Below are positions 1 through 28,626 of a DNA stretch of 38,184 nucleotides, piece after piece. Positions within the stretch are counted from its first letter, which is position 1, and each line of letters opens with the position of its first letter. The notes beneath the pieces were generated by a model. That model did not search any database and had not been told where the DNA came from. It saw nothing but the letters and a program-made list of their open reading frames with translations. Position numbers and translations under genes: made by a program. The stretch comes from an uncultured bacterium (GTDB lineage Bacteria; Myxococcota_A; CAZTSL01): assembly GCA_964616915.1 (NCBI GenBank), contig CAZTSL010000019.1, forward strand, positions 1 to 38,184. The letters are read 5' to 3'.

Positions 1-414
1 CCGGAGCAGTCTGGTCTCACTGCTTGCTTTCCCTGCTGCTTCGCTCCAGGACGCATCAAGATAGCCTTCCTCCGTTCGATTGTCAAGATGCACCCCAGGG
101 CAATCCAGGGCAATCCAGGATCGATCCATGAAAGACACACGACGCCTCTCCCCTCACGCTTCTCTCCCATCCCATTCTCCCTGCCGCGACGGAGAGGAAA
201 AGTTTCTGGTGGGTTTCATGGATCGATCCGACGAGACCGTTGCGCTGCGGTGCTCCTTGTGGTAAAATCATACCCCGTAGGATCATCGGCCCGGCGTCAC
301 GATTCCTCCCGCATGGATGCGCGGTGCCGTCTTGCCTGTGCTATGGATGTCACGACCTCCCACGACTCGGTTCATCCCAGCGAGAGAAACGGATTTCCGT
401 TTCGGAGTAGCTCC

Positions 415-2151
415 ATGGAAAAGAACGAGAGACGTGCGTCGTTGCTCGATTTGCAGCGGCACTTCAAGGAAGGGCTCAACTGCATGGAAGAGGGCCGGTA
501 CCGGGAAGCGCTCGAACATTGGGACGAGATCCTTCGACTCGATCCCGCCGGTGCGTCGAGCTATCCCCAACGGGCAAGGGTGCTTCGCAAGGTGGCCCGC
601 ACGAAGCTCAACTGGACGGAGGGAACGAGCCGAAGCACCACGGAACGCAAGCGCACCGATCCCTCCCGATCGCTCTCGGGAAGATCGGCGGAATCGCAGA
701 GCGCGGGAAGATCACAGAGAGCGGAGAGACCGGCAGGGAAAGCCCGTCTCCTCCTCGTGGAGGATTCGGTGGAGATGCGCCGTTCCCTCCGCCGGATGCT
801 CGTTTCGGCGGGGTATGAAGTCGTCGAGGCGGACAACGGGATCGAGGCCCTCTCCGCGATCGAGAGAGACCCCCCGGACCTGATCGTCACCGACATCCAG
901 ATGCCGGAGATGGATGGCTGGGAGCTGGCCTGGCGGCTCAAACGCTCGAAACGTACCGCGAAGATCCCCTTCATCTTCCTCACCTGCCGCGGGGAAGCCG
1001 ACGACCGGATCCGCGGCCTCGAGTCGGGAGCGGACGACTACATCGCCAAACCCTTCCAGTTCGAGGAACTCGAGATCCGGATCCAGAACATCCTGAAACG
1101 GACGGGAAGCCAGAGGGACCTCCCGGTTCATTTCGCCCCCCCGGAGATCTCCGACCTCCCTGCCGGCACCCTGATCGCGAACCGCTACGAGGTGGAGACG
1201 AAGCTCGGCGAAGGGGGGATGGCGGTCGTCTATCGCGTACGGGACCTCGAACTCTTCGAAGAGACGCTGGCGATCAAGATCCTCCACCTCGATACGCACC
1301 GGGCGCAACGGATGGAAGAAGCCGTCAACCGCTTCAAACGGGAGATCATGCTCGCCCGTCAGATCCTCCACCCCAACGTCATCCGGATCTTCGACTATGG
1401 GAACTTCGAGAATCACCCCTTCATCTCGATGGAGTACATCGAAGGGGAGTCACTTCGGGATCTCTTGGCGCGGGAGGGAACCCTCCCCCTCCAGGCAGCG
1501 CTTCGGATGACGAAAGAGATCTGTGACGCCCTCGGCGCGGTTCATGGCATCGGCGTCATCCACCGCGACGTGAAACCGCAGAACATCCTGATCTCGAAGG
1601 AAGGGGTACCCAAGCTCGTGGACTTCGGGATCTCGAAGCTGGTCGACTCGGCCACGCTCGACATCACGAAGGGGCGGGTGGGCCTGGGCACCCCGAACTA
1701 CATGGCGCCCGAACAGGTCCTCCACCGCCCCATCGATGCGCGAACCGACATCTACGCGCTCGGGGTCACCCTCTTCAAGATGATCACGGGGCGTTACCCC
1801 TTCGAGGAGCAGGAACTCTTCCTCAAGGGGACGCTGATGGGCCCCCCCCTTGCCCCCTCCTTCTACAACCCCGCCTTCGATGCCGACGTCGATCGGCTCG
1901 TGCTCCAGGCCCTGGAACAGCAGAAGGAACGGCGTTATCCCGACGTTTCGGCCTTCAAGGCGGCGATCGAGACGCTGGAACGAAAACTCGATGGACGATG
2001 GCCGCCGCGAACGGCGCCCTCCCGGCCGGCGGAAGCGGTTCACCCCGCTCCCGATCCCACCCAGGACCTCGACCTCCCGCAAGAAGGTTCGGGGCGCCAT
2101 CCCCTCTCCCGGTTCATGGGGCGATTCCTCAACCCCCTCCGGAAGCATTGA
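415..2151 (+). CDS. Hybrid signalling protein: TPR-like N-terminus + CheY-type receiver (REC) domain + Hanks-type Ser/Thr protein kinase domain
   Basis: ORF 88..2151. The first ATG giving a sensible N-terminus is at 415 (MEKNERR...); alternative ATGs at 313 and 343. TPR-like stretch EGRYREALEHWDEILRLDP. REC motifs RLLLVEDS, DLIVTDIQMPEMDGWEL, KIPFIFLT. Kinase motifs GEGGMAVVY (Gly loop), LAIK, HRDVKPQNIL (catalytic loop), DFGISK, APE. Confidence 0.85.
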   Translation: MEKNERRASLLDLQRHFKEGLNCMEEGRYREALEHWDEILRLDPAGASSYPQRARVLRKVARTKLNWTEGTSRSTTERKRTDPSRSLSGRSAESQSAGRSQRAERPAGKARLLLVEDSVEMRRSLRRMLVSAGYEVVEADNGIEALSAIERDPPDLIVTDIQMPEMDGWELAWRLKRSKRTAKIPFIFLTCRGEADDRIRGLESGADDYIAKPFQFEELEIRIQNILKRTGSQRDLPVHFAPPEISDLPAGTLIANRYEVETKLGEGGMAVVYRVRDLELFEETLAIKILHLDTHRAQRMEEAVNRFKREIMLARQILHPNVIRIFDYGNFENHPFISMEYIEGESLRDLLAREGTLPLQAALRMTKEICDALGAVHGIGVIHRDVKPQNILISKEGVPKLVDFGISKLVDSATLDITKGRVGLGTPNYMAPEQVLHRPIDARTDIYALGVTLFKMITGRYPFEEQELFLKGTLMGPPLAPSFYNPAFDADVDRLVLQALEQQKERRYPDVSAFKAAIETLERKLDGRWPPRTAPSRPAEAVHPAPDPTQDLDLPQEGSGRHPLSRFMGRFLNPLRKH

Positions 2152-2280: not shown

Positions 2281-3111
2281 GGTATCCTCGATCTCTTCTG
2301 GCTCTTTTTCATGATCTCCGCAATCCAGCCGATCCTGAAGCAACGTTTCCTCGAGGCCTCACGTGCCCGGTTGATCGCACGGATCGAACGACAGCGGAAT
2401 TCCCGGGTGATCCTCCTCGTCCATCGGCAGGAGACGATGAGCTTCCTCGGCTTTCCCCTGATGCGTTTCATCAACATCCACGACTCCGAGGAGGTGATCC
2501 GTGCCATCCAGCTCACCGACCCGCAGGTTCCGCTCGACCTCGTGTTGCACACGCCTGGGGGGCTCGTGCTCGCCTCCCTCCAGATCGCCCGAGCGATCAA
2601 GAAGCATCCGGGAAAGGTGACGGTCTTCGTGCCCCACTACGCGATGTCGGGGGGAACGCTGATCGCGCTCGCCGCCGACGAGATCGTGATGAGTCCCCAT
2701 GCCGTGCTCGGACCGGTCGATCCGCAGCTTGGACAATATCCGGCCGCTTCCCTCATCAAGGTCGCCAAGGAGAAACCGATCTCCGAGATCGATGACCAGA
2801 CGCTCATCCTGGCGGATCAGGGGGAGAAGGCGATCCACCAGCTCTGCGAGAGCGTGAAGGAACTCCTTGCCGGGACGGTGCCGGAGGAGAAGGCCAACGA
2901 ACTGGCCGTTCTCCTCTCCGAAGGACGCTGGACCCATGATTTTCCGATCACGTACGAGACGGCCAGATCGTTCGGACTTCCCGTGAAATGCGCGATGCCG
3001 GAGGAATTCATGCATCTCATGAGCCTCTTCCCCCAGCCGGTTCGCCACGCACAGAGCGTGGAGTATCTCCCCGTTCCTCGCCGGGCGGCCCCGAACACTT
3101 CCCACCGTTGA
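2278..3111 (+). CDS. ClpP-class serine protease of the SDH (serine dehydrogenase proteinase, PF01972-like) family
   Basis: 277 aa ORF with an N-terminal hydrophobic segment. Conserved block LVLHTPGGLVLASLQIARAIKKH...VPHYAMSGGTLIALAADEIVMSPHAVLGPVDPQ is typical of SDH_sah / ClpP-fold peptidases. The 3' end overlaps a convergent gene by 95 nt, so the true stop may be correct or the C-terminal tail may be read-through. Confidence 0.6.
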   Translation: MGILDLFWLFFMISAIQPILKQRFLEASRARLIARIERQRNSRVILLVHRQETMSFLGFPLMRFINIHDSEEVIRAIQLTDPQVPLDLVLHTPGGLVLASLQIARAIKKHPGKVTVFVPHYAMSGGTLIALAADEIVMSPHAVLGPVDPQLGQYPAASLIKVAKEKPISEIDDQTLILADQGEKAIHQLCESVKELLAGTVPEEKANELAVLLSEGRWTHDFPITYETARSFGLPVKCAMPEEFMHLMSLFPQPVRHAQSVEYLPVPRRAAPNTSHR

Positions 3112-3931
3112 GGTCGGAAACCGCGTTCGGAGGCCCTTGCATCCCTTCGAGTCGCCAGGGGTTCTCCAGGACCTCACGTACCACTTTGGCCAGGACTCCC
3201 CCCTGGAACCCGTCGATGAAACGATGATCGATCGTGGCGGTGAGCGTCAGACGGGGTTGAACCACGATCTTTCCCTCTACGACCACGGGACGCTCCGTGA
3301 TCGAGCCGATCAGGACATAGACCGGAACGCGGGCAAAGGGGGTGGGGGGGACGAAACCTTCCTCCAGGCCGAACATCCCCACGCTGGTGATGATGCACGA
3401 TCCGAAGGGGAAGCGCTCCACGCCCAACGCCCGGATCTCCAGGCCAAGCCCGGTGGCGAGGAAGCCGATCCCCGAGATCACCCACCGCAGGAGCCAGGTG
3501 GGGAGCCGCCGGATCAACCCCTTCGACTTCTCGAAATCAGCATCCTTCCCCTTCCGGAGGCGCTCGGCCAACTCCCGCAGTTCCCGCGCGATGTCGGCCA
3601 CGCTCTTGCGGTCTGCATCGCAGATCTTCGCCTTGGCGAGGTTCGCGCCCTCCTCGAGGACGACGAGATAGGAGATATCGACGGTGTCGTAGGGGACGTA
3701 GCGCCCCAGAACGATCCGCCCATTGAGGGAAGGTGCCCGTTTCATCGCCTCTGCGACCGCTTTCCCCACCAGATGCGTGATCGTGACCTTCTCCCCGCTC
3801 CTTTCCCGCAGGAAGTCGAGGTAGGCGAGGGCCTGCGTGGCATCGACGGTGAGCTTTCCGTAGATGTTGCCCTCCCGGGGGGGAGACCAGGTCGCGATCG
3901 CCAGTTTCCTGCGTGTCGTCATCCTTCCCAT
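3017..3931 (-). CDS. Stand-alone 2-oxoacid-dehydrogenase E2-type (CAT-fold, CoA-dependent) acyltransferase catalytic-domain protein
   Basis: 304 aa. N-terminus RRKLAIATW...LTVDATQAL resembles the start of an E2 catalytic domain. The active-site motif DHRFIDG lies near the C-terminus. There is no lipoyl or subunit-binding domain. AAGGAG sits 8 nt upstream of the ATG at 3931. Confidence 0.65.
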   Translation of the reverse strand: MGRMTTRRKLAIATWSPPREGNIYGKLTVDATQALAYLDFLRERSGEKVTITHLVGKAVAEAMKRAPSLNGRIVLGRYVPYDTVDISYLVVLEEGANLAKAKICDADRKSVADIARELRELAERLRKGKDADFEKSKGLIRRLPTWLLRWVISGIGFLATGLGLEIRALGVERFPFGSCIITSVGMFGLEEGFVPPTPFARVPVYVLIGSITERPVVVEGKIVVQPRLTLTATIDHRFIDGFQGGVLAKVVREVLENPWRLEGMQGPPNAVSDLNGGKCSGPPGEERGDTPRSVRGEPAGGRGS

Positions 3932-4018
3932 CGTTCATTCTCCTTCTCGGGTTTCGATCGATCTGTCTCTGGATCGTGGGCACTCCGCCGACAAGTATCC
4001 CGGAAAGAGCGGGTGGGA

Positions 4019-6652
4019 TCAAGTCCTGTGACGCGATCCAGCCTCGCTCCTTCCCCACCGGTCGAGGAGGGGGTGACAGACGAGGGCGACCCAGAGGAAG
4101 GCGAGGAGGATCCCCTCGATCATCACCCCCCCCATCCGGAAGAAGGGGCTGAACCCTCCGAGCATCGTGGCGATGCCGAGGAAGATCCCGGTGAGCGCCT
4201 GAAGTGCGATCCCCCCGGCAAGCCCCCCCTGCCGCCAGTGAAACAGGACGACGAAGTCGATGACGACGAGGCACGGAATGACGCTCTTCACCACGAATGC
4301 GCCAGGGTCGAGCCGTCCCCACGGAAGGAGCACGAGATCGAGAAGTGGGGCGAAGAGGAAGAGGAGCCCGAAAGAGAGGCACGCCAGGAGGAGAGCACGG
4401 CCACGTGAAAAACCGTGGGCGAGGGGAAGGGTGCAAAGGAGGGCGACGAGCGGGAAGATCAAGCGGGCGCTGCGCGCGAAAGCCGCAAGTTTCCCTTCGA
4501 TCCGATCGAGAAAGAGCGGAAACCCCGACAACGTCGCCGTCACCGGGAAGGGGATCCCTGCCACTTCCCCCACGGTGGGCCGGTCGAAGAGGACCTCCAG
4601 GTCGTGGCGCCGGTGAAGGAGACGCTCGATCTCCTCGGCGTTCTCCGAAGCGATTCGCTGGAGGGGGGGGGCGCTGGCAAGACGCCGGCGTAGCGCCGTG
4701 GTCTCCAACGCCGCGACCACCCCCCGCAACCCTTCGAGGAGGATCGGTGCGATCTCCGCTCCCTCTTCCACCGGCGCGAGGGCCGCGTGAACGCCGGCTG
4801 CGATCCGATCGGCCGTGAGGGGTTGGGCCACGATGCGCCGGGCCACCCCGCGGGCCTCATCCTCCGCCAGCGGGATGAGCGTCTCCTCGCCGGTGAGGAA
4901 CGCCACGATCCATTCTTCCACGAAGGCCCGCTCCTTCGCCCCGAGGGGCGCCCCCTCGGCCGCCGAGAGGGTTCGGCCCAGATCGGAGGGGGTATCGGGA
5001 AAGATCTCGTGAAGGTCGCGAGCAAGGTCCTCGAGGATCTGACGCCGGATCGCCCCAGCCCCCGCAGCATCGGGGAGGTTGCGATAGGCAAAGAGGGGGC
5101 GCCCGAAGTGCTGGGCGAGATCCTCGGAGATCGATCGTGCCAGGGGGGCGGAATCCGTCAGCGTGGGATCGAGCCGAATCTGGATCACCGTCTCCGTTCG
5201 GTCTGGATCGACGAGGTTGCCGACCGGCTGACCGGCGAGGAAGACCCAGAGGCTTGCAATCCGCTCCCGGCTCCCCGGAAGATGCTTCTCTCCGGTCATC
5301 GCCATCCCCACCTGCCGGAGCGGTTCGACGATCGAGGTGACGCGCCGCACCCCGGGACGCCGGGAGAGGCGAAGAGAAAAGGCCTCGATTCGCCGCAGGA
5401 GACCGGGATGTCTGAGATCCCCCGTGATCCGGACGGTCAGATAGCGGGACCCTCCATAATACTGGTCGAGGTGACGGAAGCCGCGCCCCACTTCCGAGTC
5501 CTCGCCGAAGATCTTCACCGGATCGAGGGTGGGCGTGAGGGGGGGAGGGGCAAAGATGCAGAGCCCCACCGCCATGACGAGGAGAGCGATTGCGCCCCGC
5601 CACGAGGGGGTGGGAAGGGAGGAGATGCGCACCCCACTCCCCCAGCGGGCGAGGATTCCGACGGTCACCATCCCTGCCCCGCAACCGACCAGCACGAATC
5701 CTACGGAGGGGAGTCTTCCCCACACGAGGATCCCCCAGCCAAGGAGGGTGATCCCCCCCGCTGCGACCGGCAGGAGGTATGGCCACCCCTCCCCCCCCTC
5801 CCGCGGGGGAACGAGAGATGCTACCGCACTCCCCAGGAGGAGGAGGAGGAGGGGGAGGAGTTGGACGAGGTTCGATGCGACCGGTGAGGAGAAGCGGGAA
5901 GAGATGCCCACCGTGCCATACCCCCATACGATCCCGCCGGCGATGGAGAGGAGGGCGAAGAGAAACGCGCCCATGCGTGGGCGATACCCGAAAGCGAGGA
6001 TCCCGAGGGGAAGGAGCATCGCCGGCGCGATCCGCCAGAGCGCTCCGGCGAGGTGGCGCGCAACGAACGCCGTTGCCACGGGCTCCCCGATCAGAAAGGG
6101 CTCAAAATCTCCCTTCTCCCCTTCCACGGCCGCGTGGATCCCTTCCACGACGCGATTGCCGGGCGTCTTGCGGTCGAGTTCGCAGATCAGGAGGGTGCTC
6201 TCCCCTCCCTTGGAGACGAGTTCCCCCGCCAGCAACGGATCGGAGAGGACCCGGCCGCGAAGCGCTCGGAGTCCCGCGGCATCGGAAGGGATCTCTCCGA
6301 GGAGCGCCCGTGCCTCGACGCCGAAGCCCATCTCCCCCGCACTCGACATCTCCGTCACCGCAGCCAGCCCCATCACGCGGCGGACGCCGGCGAGGCGTTC
6401 GAGCCGGCGGTGCAACCTCGTGATCGCCGCCAGACGAGGGAGGGTGAAGATGTCGCCCTCGGGCGCATGGAGGGCGACGATGACGATGTTCGTTCCCCCG
6501 AAGACCCGATCGACCCGCTCCATCTCCTGGCGTAGGGGATCGTTCGGGGGCGCCCATGCGAAGATCCGGGCATCCGTGGTGATCCACCCGGCAAAGCATG
6601 CCATCGACGCAGTGAGCCCGAGGAAACACCATGCCAGATGAATTCGTTTCAT
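4019..6652 (-). CDS. RND-superfamily / MMPL-like integral membrane exporter (putative lipid exporter)
   Basis: Roughly 880 aa and very hydrophobic. Topology by eye: one N-terminal TM, a large soluble loop, a cluster of about 5-6 TMs, a second large soluble loop and a second TM cluster, which is the RND/MMPL pattern. The ATG at 6652 gives MKRIHLAWCFLGL...; the ORF track's longer start at 6688 is a TTG. The gene is tightly downstream of the FAAL gene. Confidence 0.55.
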   Translation of the reverse strand: MKRIHLAWCFLGLTASMACFAGWITTDARIFAWAPPNDPLRQEMERVDRVFGGTNIVIVALHAPEGDIFTLPRLAAITRLHRRLERLAGVRRVMGLAAVTEMSSAGEMGFGVEARALLGEIPSDAAGLRALRGRVLSDPLLAGELVSKGGESTLLICELDRKTPGNRVVEGIHAAVEGEKGDFEPFLIGEPVATAFVARHLAGALWRIAPAMLLPLGILAFGYRPRMGAFLFALLSIAGGIVWGYGTVGISSRFSSPVASNLVQLLPLLLLLLGSAVASLVPPREGGEGWPYLLPVAAGGITLLGWGILVWGRLPSVGFVLVGCGAGMVTVGILARWGSGVRISSLPTPSWRGAIALLVMAVGLCIFAPPPLTPTLDPVKIFGEDSEVGRGFRHLDQYYGGSRYLTVRITGDLRHPGLLRRIEAFSLRLSRRPGVRRVTSIVEPLRQVGMAMTGEKHLPGSRERIASLWVFLAGQPVGNLVDPDRTETVIQIRLDPTLTDSAPLARSISEDLAQHFGRPLFAYRNLPDAAGAGAIRRQILEDLARDLHEIFPDTPSDLGRTLSAAEGAPLGAKERAFVEEWIVAFLTGEETLIPLAEDEARGVARRIVAQPLTADRIAAGVHAALAPVEEGAEIAPILLEGLRGVVAALETTALRRRLASAPPLQRIASENAEEIERLLHRRHDLEVLFDRPTVGEVAGIPFPVTATLSGFPLFLDRIEGKLAAFARSARLIFPLVALLCTLPLAHGFSRGRALLLACLSFGLLFLFAPLLDLVLLPWGRLDPGAFVVKSVIPCLVVIDFVVLFHWRQGGLAGGIALQALTGIFLGIATMLGGFSPFFRMGGVMIEGILLAFLWVALVCHPLLDRWGRSEAGSRHRT

Positions 6653-6695
6653 GGACGATACGATAGAGGAGGGAGGGGGCGTTGTCAATCACTCC

Positions 6696-8360
6696 CTATA
6701 CCTCCTCCGCGCCCCCCCTGTCGGAGGTCGTGGAGATGGGGTAGAGGATATCCTTCCCCTCCTCGAGATGGCCGGCGATGAACCGCTGTTTGAGCGTGAC
6801 GTGTTGAATTTTTCCGTTGGGAGTGAGGGGGATCACGCGGGGCCGCACGAGGTAGACCTTGCTCGGGCGAAAACCGACCCGTTCCTTGATCTTGCTCGTG
6901 ATCTCACGGGCTTTTCGGGCCAGTTCCTCGCGGGAGAGCGTCTCGTCACGGACTTCGGCGAAGAGGAAGACGCGCTCCGCGCCCCCGAAGCGCTCGTCAT
7001 GGACGCCGATCGCAGCGGTGTAGCGAAGCCCCTCCACCTGTTCGGCAGCCTCCTCGAGGTCCTTGGGGGCGATGTTCTGGCCGCCCCGGATGATCATGTG
7101 CTTCTTGCGGCCCACGACGAAGAGACGTCCCTCCTCGTCGAGGTAGCCTAGATCTCCGGTACGCAGAAAGCCGTTGGGGAGGAAGAGCTTCTCGTTCTCT
7201 TCGGGGCGGTTCCAGTATCCCCGGGTATTGGAACCGGCAAGCAGCGTGATTTCGCCGACCTTGCGAGGGGGGAGCGCGTTGCCCTCCTCATCCACGATCT
7301 CGATGCGGGTTCCAGCGATCGGAGGTCCTACGCAGATGAAGCCGTTCTCGTCCTCGATGATGTCCCGGTTGATGTACATCGCCGTGGCGCAGACCGAGGT
7401 CTCGGCGAGGCCGTAGGCGGGCACGAAGATGTTGCCCACGTTGAACTTCTGCTGAAAGGCCCGGATCGTGGCCGCGCGGATCGGCTCCGCGCCGGAGTAG
7501 GCCGCACGGACCGAGGAGAGGTCGAGCCCCTCGGTGTCGTCGATGTTCCGGTTGCAGAGCCGGAAGCCGAAATCGGGGGCGGCGATGAAGTTCCCCTTGT
7601 AGCGCGTCACCGCTTCGAGCCAGGTACGGATGTTCCGCAGGTCGGGGGGGAGCAGGATGAGACGCACCGCGCAGTAGAGCGTGCTCATGACGAACCCGAT
7701 CAAACCCATGTCGTGGTAGAGGGGCAGCCAGCTCACCCCGACATCGTCCGGGGAGAGCTGAACACGCTCCACGATCGCCCGAACGTTGGTCAGGAGGTTC
7801 TTGTGCGAGAGCATCACCCCTTTGGAGGCCCCCGTACTGCCGGAGGTGTACTGGAGAAAGGCGAGATGATCGCCGTCGAGTTCCACGTCCCCGAAATCGT
7901 ACCCTTCCGGGATCTCGACCGATTCCATCTCCGCGACATCGATGACCTGGATACCGGGCACGTCCTCGATCGCGGCCTTGATCGTCTCCCCGAACATCCA
8001 TGTCGTCCCGAAGATCGCGGCGGCCCCCGAGTCCTTCACGATCCCTGCGACGCGTGGCGGCGGAGAGTTCGGGAAGATCGGTGCGGGGATCACCCCGATG
8101 CGCTGGGCGCCGAAGAAGGCGAAGAAGAACTCCTTGCACGTCGGCAGCATGATGACCATCCGGTCACCCTTTTTCAGCCCACGTTGCCGGAAATTCCAGG
8201 CATACTGATCCACCTGCCTTCCCAGTTCGGCAAAGGTGACGCTCTTCTCCTCGTGGTAGAGCGTAAAGTAGATCTTGTCTGGGTTGTGACGTCTGCGAAA
8301 CTCGATCACATCGATCAGGGTCTTCGCATCGCTGAGATACGCAGGGCATGAAGATGACAC
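6696..8360 (-). CDS. Fatty acyl-AMP ligase (FAAL) / long-chain fatty-acid adenylating enzyme of the ANL superfamily
   Basis: 554 aa. AMP-binding core LQYTSGSTGASKGVMLSH, and YGLAETS, GDLGY and RGGQNI motifs. FadD32/FAAL-like N-terminus (DKIYFTLYHEEK...FAELGRQVDQYA). GTG start at 8360 with GGGAGGA 6 nt upstream. Confidence 0.85.
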   Translation of the reverse strand: MSSSCPAYLSDAKTLIDVIEFRRRHNPDKIYFTLYHEEKSVTFAELGRQVDQYAWNFRQRGLKKGDRMVIMLPTCKEFFFAFFGAQRIGVIPAPIFPNSPPPRVAGIVKDSGAAAIFGTTWMFGETIKAAIEDVPGIQVIDVAEMESVEIPEGYDFGDVELDGDHLAFLQYTSGSTGASKGVMLSHKNLLTNVRAIVERVQLSPDDVGVSWLPLYHDMGLIGFVMSTLYCAVRLILLPPDLRNIRTWLEAVTRYKGNFIAAPDFGFRLCNRNIDDTEGLDLSSVRAAYSGAEPIRAATIRAFQQKFNVGNIFVPAYGLAETSVCATAMYINRDIIEDENGFICVGPPIAGTRIEIVDEEGNALPPRKVGEITLLAGSNTRGYWNRPEENEKLFLPNGFLRTGDLGYLDEEGRLFVVGRKKHMIIRGGQNIAPKDLEEAAEQVEGLRYTAAIGVHDERFGGAERVFLFAEVRDETLSREELARKAREITSKIKERVGFRPSKVYLVRPRVIPLTPNGKIQHVTLKQRFIAGHLEEGKDILYPISTTSDRGGAEEV

Positions 8361-8506
8361 GTTGTTCCTCCCACTTTCTGGATATGGTCCACCGGATGGA
8401 AGGCTCCGCGAAGACGCGCGCCTCGGGTCCTGTCACGGGGTAAGGGGAATGAATGAAGGAAGGCGGTGCAGCACGGGGCGTATCATAGGGAATCGAGCAT
8501 GGGATG

Positions 8507-10642
8507 TCAAGGTTTTTCGAACTGTTTGGGGTCGATGGGGATATTGACTTCGAGCGATTTCACGATCGTCGTCGAAAAGGGTTTTCCGTCGGCCAGGGTC
8601 TCGATGCGGTGGGGGAAGCGGATTCCGGCGACGGTTCTGTAGTCGCTGTAGCGTTCCTCGACCTTGGCCATCCGCCCCATCACCTTCTCCTGGGCGATCC
8701 GCTTGAGGGGGAGCGCAGTCTCGGGGTCGAGGTAGAGTTTCATGGCGAAGTCTTTGCTTGCGATGTGGACGACATCGTAGCGTTTTCCCTCCTCCTCGAC
8801 GGGGGCGAGGGCCTGGACTTCGTAGTCTTTCTGCTCGAACTCGCGAAGGAGGAAGAAGAGTTTCTTCATCATTGCGTTCTGCATCTCGCGGCGCTGGGCT
8901 TCGGAGAGTTCGGCGACCCCCTGAGGGTTCTTCGACCATCCGCTCTCCCCATTTCGCACGAGGGTGACGGTGCCGAAGGGGAGCTGCATCTCCTGGCGTT
9001 GCAGATCGGGAAAGCGGCCGATGTCGGTGACGGTCATCTGCATCGTCTGTCCCTGCATCGAGACCTCGACCTCTGCGGTCATCCGGTAGGAAGAGATCTT
9101 CTCGGCGGCTTGTCGTCCTCCGATCGCCTCGAGCGCGGCTTCGAGGCGCGCCTTTCCCTGGGCCACGGCGTCCGCGGTGGCTTCGGGGAGTTCCTCCTTG
9201 GGCACGGGGATCGTGATGTCGATCTCCTCGACCGGGCCGATCGTTTCGAGGGGTTCGTCGAAGCGCTCGGGATTCCCCACGGCCAGGATCCGGAGGCTCT
9301 CGGGATGGATGAACTTTCTGGCCGCAGCCAGGACGTCCTCGCGCGTGACCCGCTCGATGTTGGCCTTCGTCTTCTCGAGGAAGTCGAGAGGGTAGCCGTA
9401 GTAGGCGTAGGTCATGAGCCGCTGCACGATCTCCCCCTTCGTATCGAAGTTGAAGACGAAGGCGTTGAGGTAGCTCTCCTTGGCGCGTTCAAGTTCCTCC
9501 TCGGTCACCGGTTCCTGCGTGATCCGTTCGACCTCGGCCTTCATCGCCCGCAGGGCCTTGACCGTCGTCTCCCCCTTCGTCTGACATCCGACGATGAAGA
9601 CGCCGGGGACTTTGTAGTTGGCCAGATAGACACCGAAGACGGAGTAGGCCAGGCCGAGCTTGTCGCGGACGTTGCGGAAGAGGCGGCTGGAGAACCCACC
9701 GCCGAGGATGTCGTTGAGGATCGTGAGCGCATAGAACTCCGGATCCCTGCGCAGCCCCCCGATATGCCCCATGTAGATGTAGGTCTGGTCGATGTCGGTC
9801 TTGCGGACGAGATGGATGGAGGAATCGAAGGTGTAGTGGACCTCGGGGAAGGGGGGCGCCTCGTAGGGGCCATCCCCCTTCCAGTCCCCGAAGACCGCCT
9901 CGAGACGGGCACGCATCTCCTCGATCGTGAAGTCCCCCCACACCCCGATCATCACGTTCTCGGGGTGGAAGAAGCGCTTGTGAAAGGCCACGAGATCGTC
10001 GCGGGTGATGCGGTCGATCGTGGCATACTCGGGGGTCCGGGCATAGGGGGAGTCGGCGCCGTAGATCAACTTGCGGAACTCCCGGGAGGCGATCTCGTTG
10101 GGATCGTCGTTGCGACGGGCGATCGCGCTGCGCTCCTGGATCTTGGCCAGTTCGATCTTGTCCTCCGGAAAGATCGGGTTTCGCAGGATGTCGGCCAGGA
10201 TCGGAAGGGCCTGGTCGATGTCCTCCTTGAGCGCGGAGAGCGTGGCCGAGGCATAGCTCAGTTCGATGCTCGTCTCCACGGAGGCCGCCAGCGATTCGAG
10301 CAGCTCATCGATCTCCTCGCCGCTGTGCGTGGCCGTGCCGCCGGTTCGCATCACCTCTCCCACGATCGAGGCCAGCCCCACCTTCTCCGCGGGTTCATAG
10401 ATCGAGCCCGCCCCGATCCGGGCCGAAAGCTCGATCAAGGGGAGTTCATGATCGGGGAGGAGGAAGAGACGAATGCCATTGGAGAGGGTGACCTCTTCGA
10501 CCTTCGGCACCTCGATGTCGTGCAGTTTCGGGAAGGTGAGATCCTTGTAGAACTTCGCCTCACCGGCAAGGAGGGAGGAGGAGGCCAGGAGGAGAAGGAT
10601 CCCGGTCATCGACGTCGTTCGGATATTCTTTCGGTTCATCAT
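8507..10642 (-). CDS. M16 (pitrilysin/insulinase) family peptidase with a non-catalytic-type first half and a C-terminal extension; signal peptide present
   Basis: 711 aa. N-terminal signal-like MMNRKNIRTTSMTGILLLLASSSLLAGEA. Overall M16 architecture with no HxxEH motif. It is immediately downstream of the catalytic M16 gene, which suggests a heterodimer partner. Confidence 0.75.
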   Translation of the reverse strand: MMNRKNIRTTSMTGILLLLASSSLLAGEAKFYKDLTFPKLHDIEVPKVEEVTLSNGIRLFLLPDHELPLIELSARIGAGSIYEPAEKVGLASIVGEVMRTGGTATHSGEEIDELLESLAASVETSIELSYASATLSALKEDIDQALPILADILRNPIFPEDKIELAKIQERSAIARRNDDPNEIASREFRKLIYGADSPYARTPEYATIDRITRDDLVAFHKRFFHPENVMIGVWGDFTIEEMRARLEAVFGDWKGDGPYEAPPFPEVHYTFDSSIHLVRKTDIDQTYIYMGHIGGLRRDPEFYALTILNDILGGGFSSRLFRNVRDKLGLAYSVFGVYLANYKVPGVFIVGCQTKGETTVKALRAMKAEVERITQEPVTEEELERAKESYLNAFVFNFDTKGEIVQRLMTYAYYGYPLDFLEKTKANIERVTREDVLAAARKFIHPESLRILAVGNPERFDEPLETIGPVEEIDITIPVPKEELPEATADAVAQGKARLEAALEAIGGRQAAEKISSYRMTAEVEVSMQGQTMQMTVTDIGRFPDLQRQEMQLPFGTVTLVRNGESGWSKNPQGVAELSEAQRREMQNAMMKKLFFLLREFEQKDYEVQALAPVEEEGKRYDVVHIASKDFAMKLYLDPETALPLKRIAQEKVMGRMAKVEERYSDYRTVAGIRFPHRIETLADGKPFSTTIVKSLEVNIPIDPKQFEKP

Positions 10643-10676: not shown

Positions 10677-12179
10677 TCAACCGTCCTGGGATGCCGTTTC
10701 GAGGCGGCCGATTGTCCGGTTCGAGGTGACCAGGTACTCCTTGGCCACCCGCATGATATCCTCGGCGCTCACGGCTTCGAGTGCTTCGAGCCGCTGGAAG
10801 AGGTTGCGCCAGTCACCGGTGACGACGTGGTAGAAGGCGAGCTGCCGGGCAAGCCCGAGGTTCGAGTTGAGCGATCGGATCAGATCGGCGCGTTCGCGCC
10901 GTCTGGCCTTCTCGAGTTCCGCCTCGGTGACCGGCTCCCGCTTGAGGCGTTCGAGTTCCGCGTAGATCAGCGCGGCATTCTCGTCGTTCGTATGATCCTT
11001 GGCGGCGATGGCATAGACGTTGAAGAGGCCTGGATACTTCATGCCGGTCAGTCCGGTGAAGGCTCCGGTGTTCACGGCGGTGCGTTCTTCCTTGACGAGT
11101 TTCTTGTAGAGGCGGGAGGTGCGTCCCCGGCCGAGGATGTCGGTGAGGATATCGAAGACGGGGTCATCGGGATCGTTGATGTCGGGACGATGATACCCGA
11201 TGAAGATCGCGGGCTGGGCCTGGGTGACGAGCGTGCATTGCCGCTCTCCCTCCTGTTTCGGTTCGACGGTCTCCACCGGCTCCGGCTTCGGGCGGACCGG
11301 CAGGCGGCCGAAATAGATCCGGGCCAGCCGTTCGATCTCCCTGGGATCGACATCCCCGACGATCGCGATCGTGAGGTTGTTGGCCCCGTAGTGTGTGTCG
11401 AACCAGGTCTGGGCCTCCTGGCGGGTGATCGTCTGAAGGTCGGAGAGATGCCCGATGACCGGTTCCCCATAGGGATGTGCCTTGTAGGCGATGGAGAGGA
11501 AGTCCTCGATCAGCCGGCCGAAGGGGTTGTTTCGCCGGAGCCGCCGTTCCTCCATCACGACGTCCTTCTCCTTGTAGAACTCCCGCAGCACCGGATCGAG
11601 GAAGCGTTCCGACTCGAGGGACATCCAGAGTTCCACCTTGTTGGAGGGGAGGGAGACCATGTATTGCGTGAAGTCGGCGCCGGTCTGGGCGTTGAGCATC
11701 CCGGAGCCCGCCCGCTCGATCGCCGCTTCCCACTCGTCGGACTGAGCGTACTGCTGCGCCTCCTCCTGTGCCGCCTGGAAGGCCTTCTCCAGCTCCTCGA
11801 TCCGTTTCGGGTCGGCCCGGCGTCCCTTCCAGCGTTCCCGCTTGAGGTCCATGAAGATCCGATCGACCTTCTCCATGGCGGCCTTCTCCTTCTCGTAGTC
11901 CTTCGTGCCGATGCGGCTCGTCCCCTTGAAGGCCATGTGTTCGAAAATGTGCGCGATACCGGTGATCCCCTTCACCTCGTTGACGGAGCCGACGTCCGCA
12001 TAGGTCAGGAAGGAGACGACGGGTGCGGTATGCCGCTCCATCACGATGAAGGTCGATCCATTGTCGAGCGAGAAGGTCGTCACCTGCTTCTCGAAGTCCT
12101 CGAGACGCTGAGCCCAAAGGGTTGGCGCCAGGAGGAGGAGCACGAGGCACGATCCCACGAGTCTCTTCAACGTCTGCAT
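10677..12179 (-). CDS. M16 family zinc peptidase, catalytic subunit (inverted zinc motif HxxEH)
   Basis: 500 aa. Signal peptide MQTLKRLVGSCLVLLLLAPTLWAQ. HIFEHMAFKGT matches the HxxEH inverzincin motif. GGGAGA RBS upstream of the ATG at 12179. Confidence 0.85.
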   Translation of the reverse strand: MQTLKRLVGSCLVLLLLAPTLWAQRLEDFEKQVTTFSLDNGSTFIVMERHTAPVVSFLTYADVGSVNEVKGITGIAHIFEHMAFKGTSRIGTKDYEKEKAAMEKVDRIFMDLKRERWKGRRADPKRIEELEKAFQAAQEEAQQYAQSDEWEAAIERAGSGMLNAQTGADFTQYMVSLPSNKVELWMSLESERFLDPVLREFYKEKDVVMEERRLRRNNPFGRLIEDFLSIAYKAHPYGEPVIGHLSDLQTITRQEAQTWFDTHYGANNLTIAIVGDVDPREIERLARIYFGRLPVRPKPEPVETVEPKQEGERQCTLVTQAQPAIFIGYHRPDINDPDDPVFDILTDILGRGRTSRLYKKLVKEERTAVNTGAFTGLTGMKYPGLFNVYAIAAKDHTNDENAALIYAELERLKREPVTEAELEKARRRERADLIRSLNSNLGLARQLAFYHVVTGDWRNLFQRLEALEAVSAEDIMRVAKEYLVTSNRTIGRLETASQDG

Positions 12180-12404
12180 GAAACCATCTCCCGCTTGCGT
12201 AGGGTAAGGGCGAAAACCACCCCGGAACGATCCGTTTGCATGAACCTAAACGAAAGTCGGCGGCGTGTCAACGGCCGGATGCGCCGGGCACTTTCCATAT
12301 CCGATCCTTACGATGATGTGGTAAGATCGCTCCGGCGGCTCCAGCTCTTCATTTGGATCGGAATCGTCGTGGTTTGGAACGATCGGCCGTTCGGAGGATG
12401 GCTC

Positions 12405-13265
12405 ATGGAAAAGAAACGGATCGTCTTCATCCTGGGGATTCCCAGATCGGGAACGACCCTCGTCTATGGAATGCTGGTTCGGAATCAATCGTGCATCGGG
12501 GGGTCTTTCAAGGAGTCGCAATTCTACTCCCATATCCTCCCCAAACCGTGGGCTTTGGAAACGTTCCTCACCGATCCCTATTTTACCGATCTCTTGAGCG
12601 CCGAGGAGATTCGGGAGATCTTTCTTCGTTCCGACTCACATCTCTCCTTCTTCAGGAATGCGATCGATCGTTTTCTCGAGCGTGAGGGGAAGTGCATCTT
12701 CGTGGAGAAGAGTCCACCCCACACCCTTTTCTTCCGGCGCATCATCGAGGATTTTCAGCATCCGACGATCATCCTGGTCGAACGGAATCCGGCCGCCGTC
12801 GTCAATTCCATCGTCCGGACCCGCTGGTCGATCCTCGCCAGCGATCGCTTGCCGGGGAAGCTCAAGGATGTCGTGTGGTTGAAGTATGTGGCTGCGATAT
12901 TGAAGTATTACCGGTATGCCAGGGCTCTGGAGGAGATCCGGAGATATCCCCACACGATCTCTGTGCGCTACGAAGACATCGTGACGGGCGCCATCGATCT
13001 GCGCGCCTTGCTCGAAGAGGAACTGGGCGTTCCCGTCGATCCATTGTATGTCTCCCGTCCCTTTTCCCCCGATGTGCAGGAACGGGACTATGCGCTCGAC
13101 AAGCGACGGATCGAGGGGTATCGTCAGACGATGCCTCCTTCGATGCAACGGCTCGTGGCTCTCCTCTTCTCGCCGAACGGGCGGCTGCAGACGTTTTCCA
13201 GTCGGCTGCTGCGTGTTTTCCTGCTCGAACCGATCTGCCGGTTGAAAGGGGCCATCGGTCCGTGA
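12405..13265 (+). CDS. PAPS-dependent sulfotransferase family protein (cytoplasmic)
   Basis: 287 aa. 5'-PSB-like P-loop ILGIPRSGTTLVYGML at the N-terminus and a later KSPPHTLFF segment typical of sulfotransferases. GGAGGA RBS 7 nt upstream of the ATG at 12405. Transcribed divergently from the M16/FAAL/MMPL block. Confidence 0.7.
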   Translation: MEKKRIVFILGIPRSGTTLVYGMLVRNQSCIGGSFKESQFYSHILPKPWALETFLTDPYFTDLLSAEEIREIFLRSDSHLSFFRNAIDRFLEREGKCIFVEKSPPHTLFFRRIIEDFQHPTIILVERNPAAVVNSIVRTRWSILASDRLPGKLKDVVWLKYVAAILKYYRYARALEEIRRYPHTISVRYEDIVTGAIDLRALLEEELGVPVDPLYVSRPFSPDVQERDYALDKRRIEGYRQTMPPSMQRLVALLFSPNGRLQTFSSRLLRVFLLEPICRLKGAIGP

Positions 13266-15849: not shown

Positions 15850-16727
15850 ACACCGTTTCCCTGACCTCTCTCGATCTGGGGGTCGCCGCGCTCCTCCTGG
15901 TGGGACTGGCCCTGACGAGCTGGCGGTTGGCGCTCGGGCTCGAGGGGCGGATCTTCATCGCGGCGTTTCGGACCGTGCTTCAGCTCCTCCTCATCGGTCT
16001 CGTGCTCAAGGCGCTCTTTGCCCATGTCGATCCCCTCTGGCTCATGCTGATCGCGCTCGTCATGCTGGCTGCGGCGGGGCGGGAGGTCGTGGCGCGGCAG
16101 AAGTACCGTCTGGAGGGGGGGTGGGCCTTCTTCGTGGGGAGTGGGGCGATGTTCGTCTCCTCCTTTTCGGTGGCTCTCCTTGCGCTCACCGTGGTGATCC
16201 GCGCGGATCCGTGGTATGCGCCCCGCTATGCGATTCCCCTGCTCGGCATGCTGCTCGGCAATACGATGAATGGGATCGCGCTTGCGATGAACCATCTCAA
16301 TGGGCAGGTCTGGCAGGGGCGGGAGATGATCGAGCAACGTCTGATGCTCGGTCAGACGCGGGGGGAAGCGATCGCCGACCTCCGGCGGGAGAGCATGCGA
16401 ACCGGCATGATCCCGATCATGAACGCCATGGCCGCGGCGGGAATCGTCAGTCTCCCCGGGATGATGACCGGCCAGATCCTGGCGGGTGCCCCCCCGACCG
16501 AAGCGGTGAGATACCAGATCCTCATCATGTTCCTCATCACGGCAGGGACGGGATTCGGGACGATCACCGCGATCGCGTTCACCACCCGCCATCTCTTCGA
16601 CGCCCGCCACCGCCTCCGGATCGAACGTCTCCAGGCCATCTCCTCCTCTACAGGGCCGTGGAGGAAGGGGAGGGCGGGTTCGGGGATCTGGCGGCCAGGT
16701 AGAGATCGAGGAGTGCGGCCGCGGTGA
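15846..16727 (+). CDS. fetB: FetB/YbbM-like (UPF0014) ABC exporter permease
   Basis: ATG at 15846. N-terminal region LEGRIFIAAFRTVLQLLLIGLVLKALFAHVDP resembles E. coli FetB (RAIIQLIIVGYVLKYIF). Multi-TM. The 3' tail overlaps the convergent aroA-aroC ORF by about 80 nt, so the C-terminal roughly 30 aa are uncertain. Confidence 0.7.
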   Translation: MNTVSLTSLDLGVAALLLVGLALTSWRLALGLEGRIFIAAFRTVLQLLLIGLVLKALFAHVDPLWLMLIALVMLAAAGREVVARQKYRLEGGWAFFVGSGAMFVSSFSVALLALTVVIRADPWYAPRYAIPLLGMLLGNTMNGIALAMNHLNGQVWQGREMIEQRLMLGQTRGEAIADLRRESMRTGMIPIMNAMAAAGIVSLPGMMTGQILAGAPPTEAVRYQILIMFLITAGTGFGTITAIAFTTRHLFDARHRLRIERLQAISSSTGPWRKGRAGSGIWRPGRDRGVRPR

Positions 16728-19053
16728 ACGCCTCGACGATCACGGGAACACGAAGCACCACGGCGGGGTCGTGACGTCCCGTGACCCGGATCGTCGTGTC
16801 GCGCTGTTCCCGGAGATCGACACTCGCCTGGGGGCGGGGAATCGAAGGCGTCGGTTTGATCGCGATCTGGAAGATGAGCGGCGCTCCGGTCGAGATCCCG
16901 CCCAGAACCCCTCCCGAATGGTTCGAGCCGAGTTGTACGCTCCCTGCAGGGGAGAGATGGTAGGGGTCGTTGTTCTCACTCCCCCGCCGGGCCGCCGCCT
17001 CGAAGCCTGCACCGAAGGCGACCCCCTTGACCGCGGGGATCGTGAAGAGGTAATGCGCCAGGACCGCATCGAGCGCATGGAAGATCGGTTCACCGATCCC
17101 GATGGGGAGACCGTGGACCTGGCACTCCACGATTCCACCGAGCGAGTCCCCCTCCCGCCGAGCCGCGAGGACCACCGAGGCCATCTTCTCGGAGAGGATC
17201 GGGTCGGGACAGCGAACCGGGCTCTTCCAGGTGGCCTGGCGCGCCTCCTCGAAGGTCGGGATCCGAGGGAGCCGCAGATCGGCGATCTGGCGGACATAGG
17301 CGGCGATCGTGATCCCGTACCCCTGGAGGATCTGTCGGGCGACCGCGCCGGCGGCGACCATCCCCACGGTCATCCGGCCGGAGAGGAAGCCTCCTCCGCG
17401 GAAATCGAAGGCCCCGCCATACTTCCGCCAGGCCGTGTAGTCCCCGTGACCGGGACGCGGCGTATGGCGGAGTCGGATGTATGGAGCGTCGTGCCCGTCG
17501 AGGTTCGGGATCTCGATCTCGATCCTCCCTCCCGTCGTCCGGAGCCGTTCCCCTTCCCGAACGAACCCCTTGCGTAGCAGGAGGGGATCGGGTTCCCGAC
17601 GCTGCGTGGTCAGGAGACCCGAGGGTCTCCGTTTGTCGAGATCGGCCGTGATGGCGCGGTAGGAGATCGTCACGTTGGGGGGGAGCCCCTCGATCCGGAC
17701 CCCGACGCACCGTTCGTGCGAGCCTCCGTAGAGGGTGACCTGGAAATGGCGTCCGATCGGTGCGGTCTCGCTGAGCACCACGGCACCCGAGCGCCGCAGG
17801 TCGTGGAAGAAATCGGGGTACGATTTGTTCACGCACTCCGGCTGCGCGATATGGGTCTCCCCGCCGGCGATCATTCCGGCGATCGCCGCGGTCATCACGA
17901 TGCGGTGATCCCCGGCGGGATCGATCCGGGCGCCCTGAAGGATGGCAGGACCCGAGACTTCGAGGGCATCGTCTTCGACCTCGATCCGGGCACCCATCCG
18001 GGCGAGCATCGTGCAGATCGCCCGGAGGCGATCACTCTCCTTCCATCTGAGGCGTTTCGTGTGCGTGATCCGGGTCGTTCCCTGGGCCTGAGTGGCGACG
18101 AGGGCAAGGAGGGGGACGAGGTCGGGGATGTCGCGCGCATCGATCGTGGTCCCCCGCAACGGGGTACGCCGGGCGATCAGGCGTTCCTCCTCCCTTTCGA
18201 TCCTCCCCCCCATCGCCTGGAGGAGGGGAACGATCTTACGGTCCCCTTGCGTCGATCGGGGGGTGAGGCCGCAGAGAGAGATCTGGGGCCCGGCGAGCAC
18301 GCCCCCGGCGAGCCAGACGGCCGCCGCGGACCAGTCCCCCGAGATGGAGAGCCGCGGCGGGGCCTCGAAGCGCTGCCCCCCCGGGACCGTGAGCGTGTCG
18401 CCCCGCGGGGCGCGGGTGACCTCTACGCCGCATCTTTCGAGGAATTCGAGCGTCAACGCAAGGTAGGGGCGCGACACGGGAGGTGTGGGAAGGCGCAGGG
18501 TTCCCCCCCGCGGCGTGAGGGGGAGCGCGAAGAGGAGCCCCGAGAGGAACTGCGAAGTGATATCCGCCGGGATCTCGATCTCCCCTCCCACGAAGCCCCC
18601 CTCCACGGTGAGGGGAAGCGATGTCCCATGAATCCGTGCCCCCTTGCTCCGCAAGACTTCGAGCAGGGGGACGATCGGGCGGCGGGCGAGATCGGGACGC
18701 CCGGAGAAGTGAATCCGTCCGCCGCACACCGCCGCGATGGGCAGAAGCATCCGGAGCGTCGAGGCGGAGGAGGCGCAATCGATGTGGGCCAGGGCAGGGA
18801 TCCGCTCCACGATCGAGCCCTCTCCGAAGGTGATCGCCTCCTCCGAGATCTGCCAGGAGGCCCCCATCCGTCCGAGTGCATCGAGGGTCGCCTCCGTGTC
18901 CTCGCACAGAAGGGGATGCTCGACCCGGACCGCGCCTGCGGCCAGGGCCGCGCAGATCAGCGCACGGTGCGTCTCACTCTTCGAGGGGGGAACGACGAGG
19001 GTGAAGTTCGGCTCGAACTTCGAAGAACGGATCAGGATCGACAGGTCACTCAT
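16648..19053 (-). CDS. In-frame fusion of 3-phosphoshikimate 1-carboxyvinyltransferase (EPSP synthase, AroA) and chorismate synthase (AroC)
   Basis: ATG at 19053 (MSDLSILIRSS). AroA motifs LVVPPSKSETHRALICAALAAG, GDWSAAAVWLAGG, DHRIVMTAAIAG; the domain ends at about ...YPDFFHDLRRSGAVV. The same frame continues without a stop into a chorismate synthase N-terminus (...GRHFQVTLYGGSHE), with later SLGGIVEC and FRGGGFLSGRMTV motifs. About 800 aa in total. Confidence 0.8.
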   Translation of the reverse strand: MSDLSILIRSSKFEPNFTLVVPPSKSETHRALICAALAAGAVRVEHPLLCEDTEATLDALGRMGASWQISEEAITFGEGSIVERIPALAHIDCASSASTLRMLLPIAAVCGGRIHFSGRPDLARRPIVPLLEVLRSKGARIHGTSLPLTVEGGFVGGEIEIPADITSQFLSGLLFALPLTPRGGTLRLPTPPVSRPYLALTLEFLERCGVEVTRAPRGDTLTVPGGQRFEAPPRLSISGDWSAAAVWLAGGVLAGPQISLCGLTPRSTQGDRKIVPLLQAMGGRIEREEERLIARRTPLRGTTIDARDIPDLVPLLALVATQAQGTTRITHTKRLRWKESDRLRAICTMLARMGARIEVEDDALEVSGPAILQGARIDPAGDHRIVMTAAIAGMIAGGETHIAQPECVNKSYPDFFHDLRRSGAVVLSETAPIGRHFQVTLYGGSHERCVGVRIEGLPPNVTISYRAITADLDKRRPSGLLTTQRREPDPLLLRKGFVREGERLRTTGGRIEIEIPNLDGHDAPYIRLRHTPRPGHGDYTAWRKYGGAFDFRGGGFLSGRMTVGMVAAGAVARQILQGYGITIAAYVRQIADLRLPRIPTFEEARQATWKSPVRCPDPILSEKMASVVLAARREGDSLGGIVECQVHGLPIGIGEPIFHALDAVLAHYLFTIPAVKGVAFGAGFEAAARRGSENNDPYHLSPAGSVQLGSNHSGGVLGGISTGAPLIFQIAIKPTPSIPRPQASVDLREQRDTTIRVTGRHDPAVVLRVPVIVEAFTAAALLDLYLAARSPNPPSPSSTAL

Positions 19054-19085
19054 TGGCGATCTTCCCCTCGCAACCTCCCGTGGCG

Positions 19086-28470: not shown

Positions 28471-28612
28471 TCTCTCCTTCTCTCCCATTTCGATTCCTTC
28501 CGTGGGGTGCGGTGCGTGGCTGCGTCCCTCGACGCGGCGAACCGCAAACCGGTGCCCTGCCCTGGCAAAGGGGACGCTTCGCGCCTTTGTCCGGTCGGGG
28601 ACCCTTTTCCCA

Positions 28613-28619: not shown

Positions 28620-28626
28620 AAAGAGG

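Follow-up and report, generated by a model that had tools for sequence, protein, structure and literature searches.

Three consecutive minus-strand genes at positions 3017–8360 of contig CAZTSL010000019.1 (assembly GCA_964616915.1, an uncultured Myxococcota_A bacterium) encode an adenylate-forming ligase, a membrane protein of the MMPL/HAE3 type and an E2-like acyltransferase, and they are not conserved together in relatives. The whole 38,184-nucleotide stretch analyzed here is called the window, and its features are listed in Table 1. A first-pass annotation had read the three genes as a single operon, a module for the assembly and export of a lipid. On balance, we lean toward a different reading, in which the locus juxtaposes two unrelated units: a lineage-specific ligase-transporter pair, and a Myxococcota acyltransferase gene that is conserved independently of it and carries a promoter-like region of its own. 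We favor two units because the synteny with an 89%-identical relative breaks exactly at the transporter stop codon while a 96-nt leader of the E2-like gene is conserved, and because E2-like homologs of 60–72% identity have heterogeneous neighbors.

Conservation separates the acyltransferase gene from the ligase and transporter genes

The nearest relative, L002 (GCA_003694145.1), encodes an E2-like protein 95% identical to that of the window, in flanking DNA that is 89% identical. It keeps the kinase, SDH protease and E2-like genes; upstream of the E2-like gene it has a divergently oriented pyridoxal phosphate (PLP) enzyme, with neither ligase nor transporter at the orthologous site. DNA homology between the two genomes ends at window position 4027. 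In a survey of 80 E2-like loci from other genomes, a ligase homolog lies within 10 kb of the E2-like gene at a single locus, where it is a generic enzyme of 26% identity, and an MMPL gene lies within that distance at six, all belonging to one clade. Clustering of approximately 1000 neighboring open reading frames (ORFs) showed the commonest neighbor family at only 7 of 72 E2-like loci. Twenty sampled immediate same-strand neighbors are functionally unrelated to one another and include TetR, aminotransferase, helicase, kinase, amylase, MFS, radical SAM, patatin and glutamate synthase genes, among others.

The surroundings of the ligase relatives are different again. A fatty-acid desaturase gene is translationally coupled to the closest of them (50–54% identical), which also have patatin, ketosynthase (KS) and PfaC-like genes nearby, and a group at 44% identity sits in PIG-L/ligase/LemA/M48 arrays; no transporter or E2-like neighbor was found beside the ligase relatives examined. 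A 1017-aa protein without Pfam match beside the closest ligase homolog (L005) was considered as a hidden transporter relative and proved unrelated on testing. In the collections searched, no protein is between 33% and 90% identical to the transporter, and none exceeds 54% identity to the ligase except the same organism's own copy. Since the flanking genes do have a close relative in these collections and the ligase and transporter do not, we regard the pair as lineage-specific. Both genes are apparently missing from a sibling species in which the flanking genes are shared, as judged from the protein set of a metagenome-assembled genome (MAG), a type of assembly that is incomplete. The first-pass annotation had itself named three findings as refuting its reading, and these largely came out: the genes are not co-conserved, and the ligase lacks the FAAL insertion, although it still groups with FAALs.

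The physical arrangement itself is sound. As first annotated, all three ORFs are present; they show coding-type codon bias (GC3 0.79–0.83, GC2 0.41–0.50). L001, a separately assembled 6.7-kb Logan contig that is 99.97% identical to the window, covers the M16, ligase, transporter, E2-like and protease genes, so that the three-gene junctions are probably not an assembly artefact, unless L001 derives from the window's own sample. An assembly chimera at the junction of the E2-like and transporter genes was considered and is unlikely, since L001 crosses it, with the same reservation about a shared sample.

An 11/12 promoter-like site at 8510–8482 falls within the 3′ end of an M16 gene, some 120 nt before the ligase start, and a scan for sigma-70-like promoters found 2 sites against 0.4 expected. 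The ligase stop at 6696 is 43 nt from the transporter ATG at 6652 and only 7 nt from the alternative TTG at 6688, which directly follows a ribosome-binding-like GGAGG/GGGAG motif, and there is no terminator-like site between the two genes. We pair ligase and transporter on the strength of this short gap, its lack of a terminator-like site and the promoter-like site upstream, and the two are probably co-transcribed. From the transporter stop at 4019 to the E2-like start at 3931 there are 87 nt; the gaps, first given as 44 and 88 nt, are each one nucleotide less. The conserved leader of the E2-like gene contains a promoter-like CTTGATCCCA...GGGATACTTG (TTGATC, 17 nt, GATACT), read as a −35/−10 pair.

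The ligase resembles fatty acyl-AMP ligases but lacks their insertion

By sequence, the ligase is nearer to fatty acyl-AMP ligases (FAALs) than to acyl-CoA synthetases. Its adenylation motifs are intact (YTSGSTGASKG, YGLAET, TGD and PNGK), and its top PDB matches are FAALs: the Picosynechococcus FAAL domain (7R7E-G, E=5e-71), Legionella 3KXW, E. coli 3PBK and FadD23. FAALs score 243–188 bits against the ligase, compared with 179 for the adenylation domains of nonribosomal peptide synthetases (NRPSs), 162 for 4-coumarate ligase (4CL) and 149 for the acyl-CoA synthetase FadD13 (E=3e-42). NCBIfam gives a mixed picture, with PRK07768 “CoA ligase” at 302 and the FAAL model PRK09192 at 298, and the curated models for FAALs and fatty acyl-CoA ligases (FACLs) all score far below their cut-offs.

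Hallmarks of FAALs are bulky residues that block the CoA pocket (W224, M231 and F279 in EcFAAL), a FAAL-specific helix and the group-specific W262 and C284 (PMC8460268, PMC6122825). W211, M218, W247, F264 and C269 of the ligase correspond to EcFAAL W224, M231, W262, F279 and C284 with matching spacing once a 2-aa deletion is allowed, a mapping that was made by motif spacing and alignment to 7R7G, not by structural superposition. The segment PPDLRNIRTWL aligns with the FAAL-specific helix at the pocket entrance (EcFAAL T252–R258) and is 2 residues shorter than in 7R7G.

The FAAL-specific insertion, approximately 20–24 aa between N-terminal subdomains B and C (Ile363–Val386 in FadD32; PMC11837247, PMC4667280), is missing: in a HMMER alignment to FAAL 7R7G, 21 residues are absent right after YGLAET. 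The A5-to-A7 spacing of 85 aa, compared with about 112 in 7R7G, leaves no room for it. The Glu-to-Asp span is 83 aa, compared with 90 in the T. thermophilus long-chain acyl-CoA synthetase (numbering from PMC6122825), and an ordinary FACL aligns across the insertion region without large gaps. Among the top 120 ligase homologs, 108 could be scored; the spacing is 83–94 in 101 of these and 85–86 in 86, and all 108 carry a W-x-P-x-YHDMG motif. Judged by these alignments, lack of the insertion is a trait of the family, the window enzyme included, and the ligase belongs to a large uncharacterized family of 530–560-aa proteins. The original FAAL assignment stands as to grouping, and the pocket blockers are present but the insertion is not; we classify the protein as a predicted FAAL-clade adenylating enzyme without it.

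Patil et al. ascribe the rejection of CoA more to the pocket blockers than to the insertion, and it is on this ranking that we lean toward a non-CoA acceptor for the ligase.

FadD10 and MbtM/FadD33 of M. tuberculosis are short FAALs without the canonical insertion, and their acceptors are stand-alone carrier proteins. The window ligase likewise combines a FAAL-type N-terminal domain with the lack of the approximately 24-aa insertion. Its similarity to FadD10 (PDB 4ir7) is weak, however (E=3e-30, compared with 5e-71 for a canonical FAAL), and it has no carrier-protein gene nearby.

The closest ligase homologs in L005 (3770–6683) and L006 (6263–9155), both 52% identical, come after a small ORF of 58–83 aa and the translationally coupled fatty-acid desaturase. 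The arrangement resembles the ligase-desaturase-carrier cassette of the JamA/JamB/JamC type; the small ORFs give no PP-binding match.

The transporter is a divergent MMPL/HAE3-type protein

Pfam contains no match to the transporter even at E≤10, so that the gathering threshold of PF03176 is not reached, and a PDB sequence search likewise returned nothing; exhaustive HMMER and fold searches were therefore needed to identify it. NCBIfam gives 28 bits to MMPL (6e-7) and 27 bits to HAE3 (1e-6), against cut-offs of 875 and 352. A word-indexed search of 5.8 billion clusters returned the transporter itself and six distant MMPL proteins. Exhaustive HMMER over 1.84 billion representatives recovered 1476 relatives at E≤1e-3, 10 of them at ≤1e-30. 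Matches to PF03176 proteins in that search reach 1e-34. The top relatives are in part bona fide PF03176 proteins (1e-31 to 1e-45); others, of 855–903 aa, are equally invisible to Pfam. Apart from its own copy, no relative exceeds 33% identity among approximately 15 billion predicted proteins.

Hydropathy analysis predicts about 12 transmembrane (TM) helices and two large periplasmic loops (approximately residues 35–212 and 385–733), as the RND/MMPL fold has them between TM1-2 and TM7-8, the second of which holds a helical insertion at about 540–705. In an AlphaFold2 (AF2) model (pLDDT 68.7, pTM 0.65) the periplasmic domains are confident and the helices less so. Foldseek matches this model to MmpL4/MmpL5, HpnN, MmpL3 and PTCH1/NPC1 at E-values of 3e-15 to 1e-9 and probability 1.0, with TM-scores of only 0.45–0.55. 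For several of the MmpL5 entries the annotation gives a complex with AcpM, which we take as precedent only. Profile searches and the model thus assign the protein to the MMPL/HAE3 type of the RND superfamily, as an extreme outlier. The label of an RND/MMPL-like transporter of about 880 aa, which had rested on topology, is borne out by HMMER, hydropathy and Foldseek and finds no backing in Pfam. Nor is the protein a generic RND efflux pump of the AcrB type; its relatives lie outside FadD/Pks loci.

The Asp-Tyr proton relay in TM4 of MmpL3-type proteins was considered as a sign of activity and is absent. Because bona fide MMPL relatives of the same subfamily also lack it, its absence is uninformative about whether the transporter is active.

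Relatives of the transporter (MMPLs of the L028 type, P0252, P0272 and P0356) sit in cassettes with LolA-like (PF17131) and DUF1302 genes at loci L028, L088, L089 and L091. This architecture has been described within HAE3 for AmeABCD, in which AmeD is the RND protein, AmeA the DUF1302 protein and AmeB the LolA-like protein (PMC6394551). The HAE3 exporter HpnN (hopanoids) is a structural match as well, and the NCBIfam HAE3 model matches the transporter. The window differs from these systems in that LolA-like (PF17131/DUF1329) and DUF1302 genes were not found among the ORFs scanned and in that identity to any relative is ≤33%; the helical insertion in the second periplasmic loop is nearer to MmpL4/5 than to HpnN. 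A 307-aa protein encoded after the L088 MMPL-like gene was examined as a possible E2-like protein and is unrelated.

Two further observations concern this group. The transporter gene is an accessory orphan whose codon usage is normal, though its flanking genes have a relative of 89–95% identity. In L089 (1–18,772), an MMPL/LolA-like/DUF1302-like cassette is followed by an acyl-CoA synthetase; the surrounding steroid/fatty-acid catabolic locus also encodes KshA-like Rieske oxygenases, acyl-CoA dehydrogenases, a CoA transferase and TetR, and it suggests a role in substrate uptake or tolerance for some members of the group.

The E2-like protein is a stand-alone catalytic domain

The acyltransferase, first annotated as CoA-dependent, consists as stated there of the E2 catalytic domain alone. 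It shares the fold of 2-oxoacid dehydrogenase E2 cores and the catalytic His/Asp of the DHRxxDG motif plus a Ser/Thr. The DHRFIDG motif spans residues 235–241, and H236, R237, D240, G241 and T182 are invariant among 24 E2-like homologs. The catalytic domain begins at the N-terminus; lipoyl and peripheral subunit-binding domains are missing, and Pfam scans found no E1 or E3 genes near the gene. All NCBIfam E2 equivalogs stay far below cut-off (66 vs 379 bits).

The conserved core covers approximately residues 1–262, followed by a non-conserved tail. Foldseek matches the AF2 model to the E2 cores 3mae and 1c4t. An insertion of about 35 aa (approximately 131–165) is modeled as two helices, the second of them hydrophobic. 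Single-domain proteins of this kind, at 60–72% identity, were counted in at least 226 species-level genomes, which with few exceptions are Myxococcota, Chondromyces apiculatus and Polyangium jinanense among them; the Myxococcota-wide distribution, the hydrophobic two-helix insertion and the variable gene neighbors set them apart from the E2 of 2-oxoacid dehydrogenases. Domain content, as predicted from sequence, does not back the name “pyruvate dehydrogenase E2” that the family carries in its sources.

At their 3′ ends, the E2-like gene and the gene for a ClpP-like SDH-type protease, which are convergent, share 95 nt (window 3017–3111; L002 2747–2841). The overlap and the low-complexity tail of the E2-like protein are kept in the 95%-identical relative L002 and not in other family members.

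A proposed two-unit model and its alternatives

In the reading we lean toward, the first unit (4019–8360) would be driven from the promoter-like site at 8510–8482, which would serve the ligase and then the tightly following transporter. The ligase would adenylate a fatty or other hydrophobic acid and pass the acyl group to a 4′-phosphopantetheine carrier, possibly a housekeeping acyl carrier protein (ACP), or to another non-CoA acceptor encoded elsewhere; a non-CoA acceptor is most likely because the residues that block the CoA pocket in FAALs are kept. The MMPL/HAE3-type protein would then carry the amphiphile so formed, or a lipid derived from it, out of the inner membrane. The second unit (3017–3931) would be a thiol or hydroxyl acyltransferase of the E2/CAT fold, probably membrane-associated, expressed from its own promoter and independent of the first unit.

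Several observations weigh against this division. There is no terminator-like site between the transporter and E2-like genes, and read-through could therefore co-express all three. The hexamers in the E2-like leader are our own reading of a putative promoter, with only 8/12 matches, below the scanner threshold. The L002 contig ends 1.9 kb upstream of the E2-like gene and MAGs are incomplete, and loss in this relative, instead of gain in the window, is conceivable. Finally, E2-like genes adjoin RND-superfamily genes in three lineages. Besides the window, these are an MMPL clade of Polyangia (L016, L023, L028, L032, L034 and L043), in which same-strand MMPL (PF03176), LolA-like (PF17131) and DUF1302 genes lie directly upstream of the E2-like gene (for example L028 4549–10,810), and an AcrB-type clade that is the window's sister (L003, L004/L007, L008 and L012), in which a hypothetical gene followed by membrane fusion protein (MFP) and AcrB-type genes lies downstream of it. 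The transporter and the L028 MMPL match in phmmer at 1e-25. Each arrangement forms a single clade in a neighbor-joining (NJ) tree, so that the placements count as three events, not thirteen. The frequency of RND genes beside E2-like genes nevertheless exceeds our rough estimate from RND-gene density and may hint at a functional link.

That recurrence, the shared strand, the short gaps without terminator-like sites and a gene content that parallels the FadD/MmpL/PapA logic would all fit a single lineage-specific pathway, in which the acyl group of a fatty acid activated by the ligase is passed by the E2-like enzyme to a non-ACP acceptor or from thiol to thiol, and the acylated lipid leaves through the MMPL-like protein, possibly after sulfation by the nearby sulfotransferase. 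The parallel is with mycobacterial loci of the sulfolipid-1 type (FadD23, MmpL8, PapA1/2, Pks2, Stf0): here, too, a FAAL-clade enzyme is found beside an MMPL-fold transporter and a CAT-fold His/Asp acyltransferase, the better PDB matches of the ligase include FadD23, and MmpL4/5/3 are among the best structural matches of the transporter. There are also differences. The window has no polyketide synthase (PKS) or ACP; in agreement with the original statement, Pfam scans of candidate ORFs and a six-frame motif search found no ACP, PKS or NRPS in the 38 kb, and the sole G-x-DS-type motif lies within a non-coding shadow frame. The ligase lacks the FAAL insertion, the acyltransferase is E2-type (PF00198) and not PapA-type, the transporter falls below the Pfam MMPL threshold, and the sulfotransferase is of another family (PF13469) and in another transcription unit. 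The three genes are not co-conserved at any distance, the E2-like gene retains its own conserved upstream region, and MMPL-E2 synteny elsewhere is confined to one clade, with LolA-like and DUF1302 genes in between. The sulfotransferase, first placed 4 kb away, is indeed 3.9 kb from the ligase start; it is transcribed divergently from the opposite strand beyond two peptidase genes, and nothing links it to the cluster. We therefore consider a joint pathway unlikely, and the acylated or sulfated envelope lipid first proposed, to which conservation lends no support, a low-probability possibility. Its boldest form, a carrier-protein-independent route in which the ligase, the orphan transporter and a membrane-associated E2-type enzyme acylate and export an undescribed envelope lipid and the recurrent E2-RND placement marks functional coupling, strikes us as quite unlikely.

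The ligase and transporter could also form a unit that works inward, the MMPL/HAE3-like protein importing or flipping a hydrophobe or lysolipid and the ligase trapping it by activation, a vectorial acylation as in LplT/Aas or FadL/FadD. The catabolic locus L089, in which an AMP-binding gene follows the MMPL, LolA-like and DUF1302-like genes, and the requirement of Pseudomonas putida for RND and DUF1302/DUF1329 genes when it grows on fatty esters (bioRxiv 10.1101/2020.07.04.188060) speak for uptake. The L089 ligase, however, belongs to the ordinary acyl-CoA synthetases and has just 24% identity to that of the window, whose FAAL-type pocket blockers are typical of biosynthetic enzymes (PMC8460268); window ORF scans found no catabolic genes nearby, and characterized HAE3/MMPL proteins are exporters (PMC6394551). 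We give uptake little credence. Pure juxtaposition, with ligase and transporter being functionally unrelated accessory genes that are adjacent by chance, would account for ligase relatives without a transporter partner and transporter relatives without a ligase partner. It appears very unlikely, given that the 7–43-nt gap and the ribosome-binding-like motif before the TTG suggest coupled expression and that both genes are missing from the sibling MAG protein set, which would fit their having been gained or lost together.

Three poorly charted protein groups

Because the comparative evidence does not favor a conserved lipid-assembly module, little is at stake in the locus as a pathway, and each of the proteins is a divergent member of a known family. 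The locus does expose three poorly charted groups whose labels in annotation pipelines mislead. Ligases of the FAAL clade that lack the insertion form a large family that keeps the CoA-pocket blockers, and classifiers that rely on the insertion (CDD cd05931, AdenylPred-type) may miss their FAAL identity. MMPL-fold transporters invisible to Pfam are a second group. The third comprises the Myxococcota-wide stand-alone E2 catalytic-domain proteins with a hydrophobic insertion, routinely misnamed “pyruvate dehydrogenase E2”. Biochemistry on any of the three would improve the annotation of many genomes.

Locus layout and other features of the window

Table 1 Positions and annotation of the three genes and the surrounding features.
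Feature	Position	Strand	Details
Adenylate-forming ligase gene	6696–8360	minus	554 aa; PF00501 E=7e-78
MMPL/HAE3-type membrane protein gene	4019–6688	minus	889 aa from longest-ORF TTG 6688; 877 aa from ATG 6652; 861 aa from ATG 6604
E2-like acyltransferase gene	3017–3931	minus	304 aa; PF00198 E=4.5e-28
E2-like upstream region, kept in L002	3932–4027	minus	blastn homology of window and L002; distal end at transporter stop codon, the synteny breakpoint
Sigma-70-like promoter candidate	8482–8510	minus	TTGACA, 17 nt, TATGAT; 11/12
Two M16 peptidase genes (context)	8507–10,642 and 10,677–12,179	minus	signal-peptide-like N-termini; upstream, same strand as the three genes
Sulfotransfer_3 protein gene (context)	12,279–13,265	plus	328 aa; PF13469 E=5.9e-14; divergent from the M16 pair

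The two M16 peptidases that had been described as secreted and preceding the three genes are present, and their N-termini agree with that description. L087 has the same arrangement of the M16 pair as the window, and a sulfotransferase gene is also called there. An ORF of 168 aa at 8433–8939 was taken as spurious, as it overlaps an M16 gene, is of low complexity and belongs to no family. No Rfam family, the SAM riboswitch included, matches anywhere in the window.

Elsewhere in the window, a single 813-aa ORF (16,648–19,089, minus strand) fuses 5-enolpyruvylshikimate-3-phosphate (EPSP) synthase (residues 31–431) to chorismate synthase (residues 449–798), enzymes of consecutive steps of the shikimate pathway. 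The S-adenosylmethionine (SAM) synthetase ORF at 34,195–35,712 (plus strand) has an N-terminal extension of approximately 120 aa, or a long 5′ leader if the start is internal. Near the beginning of the window (88–2151, plus strand), a 687-aa protein combines TPR, response-regulator receiver and Ser/Thr kinase domains; its gene adjoins the SDH protease gene in L002 as well. Two large and probably secreted proteases are encoded divergently: a 1044-aa C25 (gingipain-type) peptidase (24,808–27,942, minus strand) and a 1087-aa M36/M4-like metallopeptidase with MAM-like and thrombospondin type 3 repeats (28,168–31,431, plus strand). Overlapping genes at 22,825–24,803 (minus strand) encode two proteins, one of 288 aa with a prokaryotic RING finger and one of 371 aa of the TPR-DnaJ type, and a 4HBT thioesterase gene (22,236–22,688) adjoins them.

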